Below, in pieces: positions 2,454-8,369 of a DNA stretch of 31,599 nucleotides. A model generated the notes under the pieces. The model had not been told where the DNA came from. It did no database searches and worked only from the letters and a program-made list of their open reading frames with translations. The translations under genes were made by a program, and so were the position numbers. Location: IMG/VR virus record IMGVR_UViG_3300045988_114300, positions 1-31,599 of that record. One strand, 5' to 3'. Positions within the stretch are counted from its first letter, which is position 1, and the number at the start of each line of letters is the position of its first letter. Origin of the DNA: a virus.

Positions 2454-2934
2454 CCGACATTTCGATTAAGTCGGTGAGCGTCCAAATCTTCTCAGATAGC
2501 TCCTCGCTAATATCTTCTTTGGCTAGAATGCATCTAATCTCGCTAACCAGCGATGCGATTGTTACTGGCTTTTTGTGGGTGATGTTGTTCGCAGGTTCTT
2601 TTGTATACACGGGTTCTGCGCCAGCTGCCAAAATAACCTCTGTGCTATTACCGCGCATCATGTATCCAGCGACTTCATACTTTATACCGTCGCCGATATA
2701 TACCGTATTCCCTACTCGGATAATCTCGCCGTCTTTGTCACGAGGTAGTTCAAGCATGTTAGACGTGTCGCAAAGTCCAAGAATGACGCTACATATTATG
2801 CAAAGGCTTTTGACATTTGACATTTCGTTTAGTTTTTCTTCACCTGTGAGAGCCTTAAAGAGCGTTGAGCTGGTAATGTACTCCGTGCTCTTCAACCTCT
2901 CAGCGATTTCTGCGCGCTCTTTTTTAGTTAGCAT
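2437..2934 (-). CDS. hypothetical early protein
   Basis: ORF 2437..2991. An internal start (MLTKKERAEIAERL) trims the overlap with the 2924..3685 gene. No recognisable domain. Confidence 0.4.
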   Translation of the reverse strand: MLTKKERAEIAERLKSTEYITSSTLFKALTGEEKLNEMSNVKSLCIICSVILGLCDTSNMLELPRDKDGEIIRVGNTVYIGDGIKYEVAGYMMRGNSTEVILAAGAEPVYTKEPANNITHKKPVTIASLVSEIRCILAKEDISEELSEKIWTLTDLIEMSGDNDD

Positions 2935-3685
2935 CTTTATCAGCTCCGTTAACCTTAATACCTGTGCAAATGAAGAATTTTTCCGCATCAAAATAAGGCA
3001 TCGATGTGATTGCTGCCTTGCTATCGTCGCTTAGGCTCTCCCACCAGGCTTGACGGTCTGCTTTCTCGAGGTATAAGAACCCGCCGGTAGTCTCATGCTC
3101 TGGGTGTGCTGCCTTTTCGTCGTCTGTCATATACTCGCTATATTTCCAGGTAAGACAGTCTGACGGTATACTGCAAAGCAAGCCATAAGCTCGCGATTGC
3201 CGGAAGTCACTAAAAGTAATGTCTGTTTGGTGGTCAAAAAGACGAACTGTAGGTTTGGTTGTATTACAGTAGCCGGAGTTACAGTCGCCGGAGTTCCAGT
3301 CGCCGGAGTTCCAGTTGCCGGAGTTCCAGTCGCCGGAGTTGCGGTTGCCGGAGTTGCGGTTGCCGGAGTTACAGTTGCCGGAGTTCCAGTCGCCGGAGTT
3401 ACAGAGACTACTTATTTCATCGGCAGTTAATTCACGCAGAATTTTAAGCTTGCGACCGACACTCTTATTTCCTTGCGTCTGTACTGCGCCGGTGACGTTT
3501 ACTTCGCAAATTCGGCAAGGCTTGCTGTAATAATCGTAGACGTCAACGCACTTCTTGCAGAAATGATAGCCGTTCTCGCATATCTTAACTTCACCCTCGA
3601 CAGTGTAGGTTTTGCCGACCTCGTACACAGTGTTATCGCCGTGCTTGGTCGTCATGTCTGACAAGAACGCTTTATAGCCTTTCAT
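2924..3685 (-). CDS. phage protein with Cys-rich N-terminal domain and 9 tandem pentapeptide (NSGxW/NSGNx) repeats
   Basis: 253-aa ORF. N-terminus MKGYKAFLSDMTTKHGDNTVYEVGKTYTVEGEVKICENGYHFC resembles a conserved phage N-domain (MKAYKGF...CENGFH). The central NSGDWNSGNCNSGNRNSGNRNSGDWNSGNWNSGDWNSGDCNSGYCN is encoded by a 15-bp tandem DNA repeat. Confidence 0.7.
   Translation of the reverse strand: MKGYKAFLSDMTTKHGDNTVYEVGKTYTVEGEVKICENGYHFCKKCVDVYDYYSKPCRICEVNVTGAVQTQGNKSVGRKLKILRELTADEISSLCNSGDWNSGNCNSGNRNSGNRNSGDWNSGNWNSGDWNSGDCNSGYCNTTKPTVRLFDHQTDITFSDFRQSRAYGLLCSIPSDCLTWKYSEYMTDDEKAAHPEHETTGGFLYLEKADRQAWWESLSDDSKAAITSMPYFDAEKFFICTGIKVNGADKDAN
3272..3406. repeat. about 9 near-perfect 15-bp tandem repeats (gccggagttNNNgtY) inside the CDS
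   Basis: Directly visible: gccggagttacagtc / gccggagttccagtc / gccggagttccagtt / gccggagttccagtc / gccggagttgcggtt x2 / gccggagttacagtt / gccggagttccagtc / gccggagttacagag. Confidence 0.95.
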
Positions 3686-5027: not shown

Positions 5028-5243
5028 TTAACACTTAATACGTGTTTTTCTACTTCCGATATCAAGCAGATAATCGGGAGTGCAGTTATAAAGCTTTGCA
5101 AGCTTCATAAGGTTTTCTGAAAGAGGAGTATTTTGACCAGATTCCCAGCGCAAAAGAGTATTTGCAGAGACACCAATCTTCTTTGCAGCTTCGTCTGCTG
5201 ACAAACCATGTCTTGCTCTTTCAGCCTTCATGTTCATTCGCAT
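5028..5243 (-). CDS. Cro-like XRE-family HTH regulator
   Basis: 71 aa. LSADEAAKKIGVSANTLLRWESGQNTP is a canonical HTH_XRE. Divergent from the cI-like gene, with RBS AAAGGAGG. Confidence 0.85.
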   Translation of the reverse strand: MRMNMKAERARHGLSADEAAKKIGVSANTLLRWESGQNTPLSENLMKLAKLYNCTPDYLLDIGSRKTRIKC

Positions 5244-5382: not shown

Positions 5383-6015
5383 ATGAAATATCAGATTGCT
5401 GAAGCACGTAAGCTTAGAGACATTACACAATCTGAATTAGCTGAGAAAATGGGAACTACCCAGCAAACAATTCAAAGATATGAGACTAATCAAGTTAATA
5501 TCCGCATGGATAAGATGATTGAGATGTCAGAGATATTGAATGTAAGTTTGGCTTATCTCCTTGGAATGTCTAGTAGTCCAGAATTATCAGAAGTTTCTGA
5601 CATGGTTCCTGTCCCACTTCTAGGTTCAATTGCTGCTGGGACTCCTATTGAGATGATTAACATTGATGAGACGTATGACATCCCAGCAGATATTCACGAC
5701 AGATACCCGCAAGCTTTTCTTTTGAAGGTTGTAGGCGATTCTATGAACCGCGTACTACCAAATGGTTGCTATGCGCTCATTAACCCTTGCCAAGAAGCGT
5801 CTAAGTCTATGAAGGCATATGCAGTGTGTGTGAATGGCTTTGACGCAACTATTAAGCGTGTGAGACCACTATCAAATGGCTACGAGCTCATACCAGACAG
5901 CATAGATCATACTTACAGACCGCAGGTGTTTGACTTCAATGAGATTGACACACAGCCCGTCTCAATCATTGGCGAGGTTGTGTGGTATTTAGTACCTTTT
6001 GGATTTGAGATTTAG
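5383..6015 (+). CDS. CI-like phage repressor (N-terminal HTH_XRE plus C-terminal S24 LexA-like peptidase)
   Basis: ITQSELAEKMGTTQQTIQRYETNQ helix-turn-helix, Ala-Gly cleavage site (SIAAGTPI), catalytic Ser in VGDSMN, Lys in TIKRV. Confidence 0.9.
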   Translation: MKYQIAEARKLRDITQSELAEKMGTTQQTIQRYETNQVNIRMDKMIEMSEILNVSLAYLLGMSSSPELSEVSDMVPVPLLGSIAAGTPIEMINIDETYDIPADIHDRYPQAFLLKVVGDSMNRVLPNGCYALINPCQEASKSMKAYAVCVNGFDATIKRVRPLSNGYELIPDSIDHTYRPQVFDFNEIDTQPVSIIGEVVWYLVPFGFEI

Positions 6016-6046: not shown

Positions 6047-6835
6047 TTGGAAAGGTTTAGAGAAATGGCTGTTTATCAAGACAAAGCGAGAGACCGCATC
6101 AAAAAAGGTTTGAGACGCATGACAACAATTGTCGAAAAGGGACGCGCTGAAGACTTCAAAGAAGCTGACACTCGTAAAATTGTCTCAGACATTCTGTGCG
6201 AGTACCTTGGTTGGGATAGATTTGACAATGTCACAGCTGAACAGATGATTGGCTCCCGCTTTGCTGACTATGTTGTTCGCACATCAGATGAAGAGGTATT
6301 TGTCGTTGAGGTTAAGCAAATTGGGCTTAAGCTCAAGGAAACACACCTTAATCAAGCGCGTCAATATGCTGTTGATGAGGGTATTGACTGGATTATTCTT
6401 ACCAACGGTGATGACTGGCAAGTCTATCGCACTAAGCTCGAAGGCAAAATCCCTGTCACAAAGCTAGTATTCAGAGTCACTATTTCCGACAAGGAAACAG
6501 CTCCAGCACAGAAAGCAGAGCTGCTTTACCTGCTCTCTGAAGAAGCGCATCGTAAGAATGAGATTGATGACTATTATCAGAGACGCATTGCTCTTTCTGG
6601 AGAGAACCTTGCAGATCATATCATCTCAACCGAAGTCATTAATAAGCTGCGAGTTGCTATCAAGAACACCACAGGGCAGAACCTGAAGAATTCAGAAATC
6701 GCAGAAGCTCTTGTAGCACGCTTATTCTTGCCTGAAAAGGTGACAGATGACAGTCGTAAGGCAATCGCAAAAATGAAAAAAGATGAGCGTAAGAAGCCTG
6801 TAGCAAAGACAAAAGCTGCGTCTGAGGAAGAGTAG
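6047..6835 (+). CDS. HsdR-N-like (type I restriction enzyme R N-terminal / Mrr-like) PD-(D/E)XK nuclease-domain protein with charged C-terminal tail
   Basis: ILCEYLGW ... RFADYVV ... VFVVEVKQ ... QARQYA ... WIILTNGDDWQVY matches the HSDR_N motif series (E..D-YVL..-VEAK..Q-Y..ILTNG-W-Y). Co-oriented with cI, so presumably expressed in lysogens. Confidence 0.6.
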   Translation: MERFREMAVYQDKARDRIKKGLRRMTTIVEKGRAEDFKEADTRKIVSDILCEYLGWDRFDNVTAEQMIGSRFADYVVRTSDEEVFVVEVKQIGLKLKETHLNQARQYAVDEGIDWIILTNGDDWQVYRTKLEGKIPVTKLVFRVTISDKETAPAQKAELLYLLSEEAHRKNEIDDYYQRRIALSGENLADHIISTEVINKLRVAIKNTTGQNLKNSEIAEALVARLFLPEKVTDDSRKAIAKMKKDERKKPVAKTKAASEEE

Positions 6836-6841
6836 TAAAAC

Positions 6842-6881
6842 AAAAAAAGCCCTCTGAGTCCGCCAAGACAAATCAGAGGGC
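6842..6881 (-). terminator. hairpin (9-bp GC-rich stem gccctctga/tcagagggc, 15-nt loop) with a U-tract on the minus-strand transcript
   Basis: Plus strand reads AAAAAAA-gccctctga-N15-tcagagggc. The T-run is present only for leftward transcription, and the long loop lowers confidence. Confidence 0.35.
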
Positions 6882-6913: not shown

Positions 6914-8020
6914 ATGCCACGTAAACGTTCTTCATGGGGTTCAAATCAGTCAATGGGTCCTGGGAAACGCAGAATCCGCTATATGGCTGACACGGGAGAC
7001 GGTAGAGGGTTCACAAGACACTCTGAGACCGTCTATGGAACACGCAAACAAGCTGATGAAGTATTAGCGCAAAGACGCATAGAACACAGCCAAGACAAGC
7101 CTGTGCCAACGCTCAGGCAGGCTTATGAAGCGTGGTACCTTCCAGAGTTGCAAGAACAACTGAAGACAGGTGAACTCTCTCAGAACTCATATAAGAACTA
7201 TGTTAGTAGATGGACAAGGCATATAGACCCTATTTGGGGAAGCTTGCCAATCACGGCAATTAAACCTCTTGGAATCCAGGAATGGCTGCTCACTATGACG
7301 CAGGGAATCGCTGAGACATCGCTTATGTTGCTGCGTAAAATCCTCGATAAGTGCGTCATGCTTGAGCTGCTACCAGCAAACCCTGCAAGCGTTACGTATA
7401 GGATGCCTAAGCAATCGAATAAGCGTGATACGGATGTTTACTCGCTTAGTGAACTTTGCGAGGTTTTAGAAGCTCTACGTGGCTCTGTTGCTTATATCCC
7501 AGCTATTCTCTGTGGCATTGGTTCATGCCGTGTTGGTGAGTCATTAGGCGTGAGAAAAGAAAACATCATGTCTTATAAATATGATGGCATGACGCTTGCC
7601 ATTATTGACATTGATACACAAGTAGATAATAACGGAGAAGTACTAAACAAGCTAAAGACGCCACAAAGCAAGAGACCTATAGTCATTCCAGAGCCATGGT
7701 CAAAAGACATTCTCTCAATTGATACAGACTGGCTCACTGATACAGGCTATGGGAAGCCAGTAAGCCAGTAGGTAGTGCGTTATGTATGGAATAGGCTTCT
7801 CAAAGAAAAGAATCTTAAATACATTCCATTTAGAAATCTGCGTAATTCTTGGCGCACTATCATGCGTTGGGAGTTAGGTATAGACTCTGACTATGTTGAG
7901 AAGATGATGGGTCATGCTGGAAAGGGCGTTGGTGAAATACACTATGATCGTCCGCAATGGAGACAGTTTGCGGATGTTGTAGGAGAAACATGGGTTAGAT
8001 ACATGGCAAAGAATAATTAA
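6914..8020 (+). pseudogene. int: tyrosine integrase interrupted by a single in-frame TAG (7769-7771); two ORFs 6914..7771 and 7775..8020 in the same frame
   Basis: The N-terminal ORF carries the arm-binding domain and box I (CRVGESLGV, LKTPQSKRPIVIP). The downstream ORF carries box II (FRNLRNSWRT) and the Tyr region (MGHAGKGVGEIHYDRP). 6914 and 7775 are the same residue mod 3, giving ...KPVSQ*VVRYVW. Confidence 0.7.
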
Positions 8021-8330
8021 TAGTTAGGACATTTTAGGACACGGACAGACATTATATAGTATTTTACCTGGTCTTTTATTCTATCCCCAATACAGGTATA
8101 GTATTGTCTAGTAATGTTTGTATGTTTTATACTATAGTTTACCTGCGATTATGTAAAACGTTAGTTCGCTAAATTGGTGTATTTTATGGAATTAGGACAC
8201 GCAAAGGACACAAAGCAACGTACCTGTTTTGCGCTTTATATTAGCTAGTTTGTGCCTACGTTTCACCAGTTAAACGGCTTGTTGTAAGGCATTTTAAGAC
8301 ACGTAAATTGTGAGTTGGAGTATTTACCCA
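8021..8330. other. putative attP region: AT-rich, TTAGGACA-like direct repeats (8024, 8034, 8192, 8204, 8294) and TTTACCTG repeats (8065, 8141)
   Basis: Lies between int and the end of the late operon. The same-orientation repeats flank a central AT-rich segment, the usual layout of arm-type integrase binding sites. Confidence 0.4.
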
Positions 8331-8331
8331 T

Positions 8332-8364
8332 GAAAAAAGCCCCTCTCGTCAAAACGAGAGGGGT
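8332..8364 (-). terminator. rho-independent terminator after the lysin gene (stem gcccctctcgt/acgagaggggt, loop caaa, U-run)
   Basis: The minus-strand transcript reads ccctctcgttttgacgagaggggCTTTTTT immediately after the lysin TAA stop. Confidence 0.8.
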
Positions 8365-8369
8365 AAATA

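Follow-up and report, generated by a model that had tools for sequence, protein, structure and literature searches.

A human oral temperate phage with an amber codon in place of Gln286 in its tyrosine integrase gene

Introduction

The 31,599-nucleotide viral DNA analysed here, hereafter the window, contains two adjacent open reading frames that together encode the motifs of a tyrosine integrase and are separated by one in-frame TAG. The arrangement raises the question of whether the stop codon is a mutation that disabled a single gene, an artefact of sequencing or assembly, a codon that is translated, or the boundary between two genes. A first-pass annotation of the sequence had offered three explanations, namely a nonsense mutation derived from TGG (Trp) that produced a defective integrase, a sequencing or assembly error, and low-level amber readthrough, and had suggested that alignment with related integrases would show which residue occupies the position of the stop. 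It had also allowed that intact relatives might have two separate genes at this place.

Results

Genome organization and host

The same 55 bases are present at both ends of the window as an exact direct repeat (1-55 and 31545-31599), indicating a circular assembly and the free form of a phage genome. On the minus strand, the repeat is part of a coding stretch of low complexity that is rich in Pro, Glu and Thr. The window is a complete, circular 31.5-kb genome of a temperate siphovirus with an intact attP, and contigs of related phages are 30.9-32.4 kb in length. The lysogeny module includes an intact gene encoding a CI-like repressor with HTH_3 and Peptidase_S24 domains (5383..6015, plus strand) and, divergent from it, a gene encoding a Cro-like HTH protein (5028..5243, minus strand). 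In addition to these regulators and the integrase, the window encodes an HSDR_N_2 protein, an endolysin and a holin, structural functions (tail proteins, tape measure, Gp15, chaperone, head proteins, portal and large terminase) and replication functions (DnaB-like helicase, Sak4 and RusA). Neither a second recombinase nor a partition system was found among the window genes. A 15-nt tandem repeat array of 9.4 copies (3264-3404) is present in the early region inside a gene (2924..3685, minus strand) for a protein with DUF7666 and pentapeptide repeats. The hosts of this phage group are oral Atopobium/Lancefieldella of the human oral microbiome.

The two reading frames are one integrase gene

Direct reading of the sequence located the TAG at 7769-7771, in frame with the ATG at 6914 and the TAA at 8018-8020, in the context GGG AAG CCA GTA AGC CAG TAG GTA GTG CGT TAT. 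The ORF list contains 6914..7771 (plus strand, 285 aa) and 7775..8020 (plus strand, 81 aa from a GTG) in the same frame, and the coordinates and peptide context reported for them in the first-pass annotation were exact. The TAG is followed by 82 open codons, and both parts joined comprise 368 codons. A search with the joined sequence revealed 218 homologues, nearly all of them single proteins of 360-390 aa, of which the best two (P0001 and P0002, both 368 aa) were 97% and 96% identical over 100% of the query. The 368 codons aligned with the homologous genes without gaps at ∼94% nucleotide identity. Since the joined codons match unbroken 368-aa proteins over their full length, the two ORFs are not adjacent by chance; the finding of single homologues speaks against the idea that intact relatives have two genes here.

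The feature at 6914..8020 (plus strand) was identified as the gene for a tyrosine integrase of the lambda-Int/Tn1549-Int type, broken at codon 286, on the basis of end-to-end homology, AF2 modeling and Foldseek comparison. Pfam, alignments and modeling assign to the N-terminal ORF (6914..7771, plus strand) an arm-binding beta domain, a SAM-like core-binding domain (PF14659, SAM-like integrase N-domain, above threshold) and the first half of the catalytic domain with R206 and K248. Downstream of the stop, the C-terminal remnant (7772..8020, plus strand, 82 codons) contains R310, H334 and the nucleophile Y344 and matches the end of PF00589 (Phage_integrase catalytic domain) with a score below the gathering threshold. 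The PF00589 score is under the threshold even for intact members of this integrase family. A search of PDB sequences with the family profile gave only two NMR structures of core-binding-domain fragments, and the catalytic residues were therefore assigned by family invariance, the AF2 model and the fold search. Alignments of 24 and 65 family members revealed R206 (in SCRVGE), K248, R310 (NLRNSW), H334 (MMGH) and Y344 as invariant. All five are present across the two ORFs of the window, and they are not on a single polypeptide, the TAG at codon 286 lying between K248 and R310; the earlier reading that the stop splits the catalytic motifs is thereby borne out. On this evidence 6914..8020 is, as predicted from its sequence, functionally a pseudogene.

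The AF2 model of the intact homologue P0001, which is 97% identical, had a mean pLDDT of 91.4 and predicts the three-domain fold with arm-binding, core-binding and catalytic domains. The top Foldseek matches of the model in the PDB were Tn1549 Int and lambda Int (E ∼1e-9, probability 1.00). Residue 286 was placed at the N-terminal end of a helix (285-298), directly after a loop. The family thus shares with lambda Int and Tn1549 Int the N-terminal arm-binding beta domain, the SAM-like core-binding domain (PF14659), the catalytic order R...K...R...H...Y and a predicted fold that, for the intact allele, resembles these two best, and the gene adjoins an attP with arm-type-like repeats as in lambda-type systems. 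It differs in that sequence similarity to the solved integrases is very low (∼15%) with PF00589 below the gathering threshold, in that the first His of the HxxR box is R, K or Q, and in that the gene of the window stops before R310, H334 and Y344. Across the family this first His is absent, with R, K, Q or G in its place, and Arg-II is invariant; the HxxR-box region of the window, at 7832-7843, encodes FRNLRNSW.

The ancestral codon is CAG

The DNA of relatives reads CAG CAG GTA GTG where the window reads CAG TAG GTA GTG. Codon 286 was CAG in all 37 relatives recovered by unbiased pattern or protein scans. Thirteen of these are IMG/VR contigs, retrieved by a pattern in which the first base of codon 286 was left as N. 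Another 17 are metagenome contigs, retrieved by a pattern that accepted either C or T in each of the two Gln codons, and all of them read CAG CAG. The remaining seven are GTDB genomes, species representatives of Atopobium/Lancefieldella with an intact integrase gene. At the protein level, the column is variable across the family (Q/Y/H/P/R/E/A/I and others) with Gln in the closest relatives. The derivation of the stop from TGG (Trp) in the first-pass annotation is not supported, the codon of the relatives being CAG (Gln). Comparison with the relatives' DNA thus indicates that the amber codon (7769..7771, plus strand) is in place of Gln286 and that the change is a C-to-T transition at 7769, the ancestral codon being CAG and not TGG. 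The allele is hereafter designated Q286am.

The same allele is present in independent assemblies

The exact 285-aa product is also encoded on two contigs from other samples, both with the TAG. The first (L004) is from the human oral metagenome ERZ988913 (k127 assembly) and is 99.87% identical to the window over 7.2 kb; the second (L005) is from ERZ27263395 (k119 assembly) and is 99.90% identical over 6.1 kb. Within int they differ from the window by five (L004) and three (L005) SNPs, all synonymous. All five differences that separate the three amber copies fall within 46 nt and may represent a recombination patch.

These contigs bear directly on the proposal that the phage really has CAG and that the TAG arose from faulty sequencing or assembly, or from a minority variant that became the consensus base. 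Only one base distinguishes the two states, as that proposal would have it, yet the same base is found in three contigs from different samples and assemblers (55-bp overlap, k127 and k119), and the contigs differ from one another at other positions. Because three assemblies share the base and differ elsewhere, random error is ruled out, and the proposal as a whole is considered very unlikely; the first-pass explanation by error is contradicted by an identical allele, a few SNPs apart, in two other assemblies with other k-mer sizes.

Searching the INPHARED nucleotide collection with the integrase region gave no match, indicating that it holds no cultured or deposited relative, and a literature search found nothing on Atopobium/Lancefieldella phages or on the Q286am allele.

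Just upstream of int, at ∼6843, a mosaic boundary separates the otherwise 99.9% identical contigs. The window and L004 have a 262-aa HSDR_N_2 gene (6047..6835) at this location, and L005 (1-138) has the 117-aa gene of phages of the L001 type (L001 533-746). Between this boundary and int, an A-run is followed by a GC-rich hairpin at 6849-6881 (GCCCTCTGA...TCAGAGGGC, 15-nt loop), and the sequence resembles an intrinsic terminator of minus-strand transcription, in antisense to int. The hairpin is upstream of int in all relatives, even those with a different upstream gene, and is not reported by the terminator scan because the loop is too long.

The attachment site is intact and the amber copies are free

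Past the end of int, the window and integrated relatives are collinear as far as ...CAGGTATA (∼8099). Beyond this point the integrated copies enter host DNA beside an Asp/Glu racemase gene, whereas the window enters phage DNA and the lysis genes. The presence of phage and not host DNA past the junction indicates that the window carries attP, the region being delimited as 8021..8369 by comparison of attP and attR junctions. The crossover was located to ∼8088-8099 (...CAATACAGGTATA), the place at which host DNA begins in integrated relatives. Repeats of TAGGACA/AGGACAC flank the crossover on both sides (8025, 8035, 8193 and 8205, with degenerate copies at 8285-8303) and look like candidate arm-type binding sites for the integrase. 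Counted together, five such motifs are located within 8025-8211, plus the degenerate copies.

All three Q286am contigs (the window, L004 and L005) are in the attP, or free, form. Across the phage group, 7/8 independent lesions but 10/27 intact alleles were in attP form (Fisher one-sided p = 0.016), an association biased by ascertainment in that the routes differed, the defective alleles having been found through the cluster of the 81-aa ORF.

Other integrase lesions in the phage group

The 81-aa ORF cluster consists of 12 sequences, which are only remnants of disrupted integrase genes. Its members were traced to contigs and each locus was aligned to the intact reference gene, yielding a catalogue of lesions. 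In addition to Q286am in the window, L004 and L005, the catalogue includes Q285am (CAG to TAG in the neighbouring codon) combined with a start-codon change of ATG to ATA in L020 (2992-2994 and 2140-2142), W262am (TGG to TAG) in L021, an 11-bp deletion at nt 807 in L023, loss of the 5' 700-750 nt in L022 and L024, an internal deletion of ∼250 bp in L025/L026, and two 1-nt insertions in L045. L020 is a free-form related genome with a knock-out independent of that in the window. Of the defective integrases found, L023 (1-760) alone was in the integrated (attR) form, adjoining the host Asp/Glu racemase gene; it may be a grounded prophage.

A further family of fragments is represented by P0010, which stands for a cluster of 38 N-terminal integrase fragments of 80-271 aa, several on contigs of 30-60 kb. 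P0010 ends in ...PEPWSKRHSLH, as expected from an extra A in the run TCAAAAGAC of the reference sequence, and the 'RHSLH' tail suggests a frameshift in that A-run. One 262-aa member of the cluster, encoded on a contig of 31,599 bases, is evidently the product of the window itself called from Met24. In the unbiased scans a defective integrase was present in 1/37 loci (L045) and an amber at codon 285 or 286 in 0/37. Taken together, the comparisons indicate that the TAG of the window is one of many independent loss-of-function integrase alleles in this phage group. A mutational hot spot was considered in view of the neighbouring positions of Q285am and Q286am, and the idea was rejected as unproven. 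The adjacency is weak evidence since the 81-aa route detects point lesions only within about codons 227-287, in which only six codons can become stops by transition.

Translation through or after the stop codon

Three readings in which the integrase is still produced were weighed against this background. In the first, the amber is leaky, natural UAG readthrough or a host suppressor tRNA providing a little full-length integrase, probably with Gln at position 286, so that the allele is hypomorphic and not null. Near-cognate or supE-type suppression would bring back the ancestral Gln, position 286, being variable and at the N-terminal end of a helix, would accept most inserted residues, and the allele is present in at least three samples with no decay of the remnant downstream of the stop. 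Nonetheless, ARAGORN detected no tRNA in either the window or 42 related loci, so no suppressor tRNA(CUA) is encoded there, and the stop is absent from codon 286 in all 37 of the relatives, the TAG being common only to the near-clonal L004 and L005. TAG is moreover an ordinary terminator, ending 10 of 41 hand-picked window genes, and the gene for the CI-like repressor is one of the 10. An Rfam search gave no match, the stop stands in the context TAG-G, and the local RNA fold is unremarkable (z = -1.99). Deletions in other variants of the group are beyond rescue by readthrough, and all three copies of the allele are non-integrated. Low-level readthrough, as the first-pass annotation had proposed, is considered distinctly improbable given the absence of a suppressor tRNA from these loci, the lack of conservation of the stop and the normal use of TAG.

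The same observations bear on the second reading, stop-codon recoding, in which the phage or its host would read TAG as Gln in the manner of genetic code 15. Like stop-codon-recoded phages in which TAG encodes Gln, the window has a TAG where relatives have Gln, and L020 has another at codon 285. It differs in that the TAG is at a single site in a lysogeny gene and is otherwise a terminator, with neither a suppressor tRNA (in the window or the 42 related loci) nor another recoding feature. W262am in L021 replaces Trp and not Gln, and the relatives of the host are ordinary Atopobiaceae. When TAG was read through across the window, no other real gene was found to be split, and no other real gene pair was merged except that for the chaperone and Gp15. 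The recoding reading, which is assigned almost no probability, is effectively refuted by normal TAG usage.

The exceptional pair consists of an ORF at the tail-chaperone position (17448..17828, minus strand, 126 aa), which ends in TAG, and a Phage_Gp15 (PF06854) ORF (16854..17444, minus strand, 196 aa), which follows in frame one codon later (TAG TTC ATG; 17444-17450). Amber readthrough from one to the other was rejected because the second ORF starts at an ATG of its own and encodes a complete Phage_Gp15 protein. The same-frame layout is unlike the shifted frame typical of tail-chaperone frameshifting and is kept in L009 and L018; the two ORFs are probably just two genes.

The third reading is a split integrase, in which translation re-initiates at GTG 7775 and the two fragments, of 285 and 81 aa, form an active enzyme by non-covalent association. 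The GTG is four bases downstream of the stop, and in the confident model the break falls at a boundary between loop and helix. Against this, there is no Shine-Dalgarno sequence at a usable distance, AGG being 2 nt and GGGAAG 18 nt before the GTG; the GTG itself is the ancestral Val288 codon found in intact alleles; no relative has two genuine genes here; and other lesions in the group remove whole domains. This reading is regarded as highly improbable.

Selection on the amber allele

Private non-synonymous and synonymous changes numbered 11:15 in the three amber alleles and 37:75 in the intact alleles (p = 0.25). As the share of non-synonymous changes is only a little higher in the amber alleles, relaxed selection is not demonstrated. 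The amber lineage has three private amino-acid changes, V107I, K277T and A359T, the last of which is at a nearly invariant position. The persistence of the allele in at least three samples indicates that the Q286am phage is viable and transmissible, and also fits a residual supply of integrase by readthrough or in trans.

Discussion

The results indicate that the TAG is very probably a genuine nonsense mutation, Q286am, caused by a single C-to-T change, that left a phage strain with a loss-of-function integrase and unable to integrate by itself. Two lines of evidence uphold this explanation among the three first offered: the relatives have one unbroken 368-aa gene with CAG, and other, independent lesions are present in related phages. 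Of the other two, error did not stand and readthrough gained no support.

The C-to-T change at 7769 turned Gln286 (CAG) into amber, and translation from the ATG at 6914 reaches a stop after residue 285. The product retains the arm-binding and core-binding domains and Arg-I and Lys, and is without Arg-II (R310), His-III (H334) and the Tyr nucleophile (Y344). From the chemistry of tyrosine recombinases, an integrase without the Tyr nucleophile and Arg-II would be unable to cleave and rejoin DNA. The truncated protein has its DNA-binding domains and might still bind the att sites. Since the phage is otherwise complete, with a repressor/Cro switch, attP and genes for replication, packaging, head, tail and lysis, lytic growth should still be possible. 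Stable integrated lysogens would presumably not be formed by the phage alone, which would neither integrate nor excise by itself; at most, abortive lysogeny would be expected, as for int amber mutants of lambda. We thus infer a loss of activity and a non-integrating lifestyle. Related resident prophages are common and share its attB, and, as a matter of speculation, their integrase may help the phage.

Classical int amber mutants of lambda grow lytically as normal and integrate stably only with Int provided in trans or with suppression of the amber. The phage described here shares with these mutants, and with naturally integrase-defective temperate phages, an int gene broken by a nonsense codon in a temperate phage that is complete in other respects. 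Unlike the lambda int ambers, Q286am is a natural allele from human oral metagenomes, in a group without cultured representatives, and its phenotype is deduced rather than observed.

The pattern of lesions allows a further reading, in which the recurrent knock-outs (three ambers, frameshifts and deletions) reflect repeated selection for a non-integrating lifestyle and not mere decay. The knock-outs are mostly on complete free-form genomes. The reading is considered unlikely. If it were true, such phages would have virulent-like growth or would depend on the integrase of very common resident prophages with the same attB, and the Q286am strain would illustrate this in a transmissible form, perhaps with some function preserved by leakiness of the amber. 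By the preferred account, Q286am is a rare variant in a phage population in which integrase-defective variants arise repeatedly.

In annotation, both ORFs should be entered as a single integrase gene marked as disrupted, and a match to an integrase is alone no ground for scoring the Q286am phage as integration-competent. The kind of lesion is already known, and what is new is the natural example. The recurring loss of integrase is what population genetics would lead one to expect of lysogeny modules and not a new mechanism. The Q286am phage provides a small, clean natural example of a temperate phage that very probably lost its integrase by point mutation and is still circulating between human oral samples.
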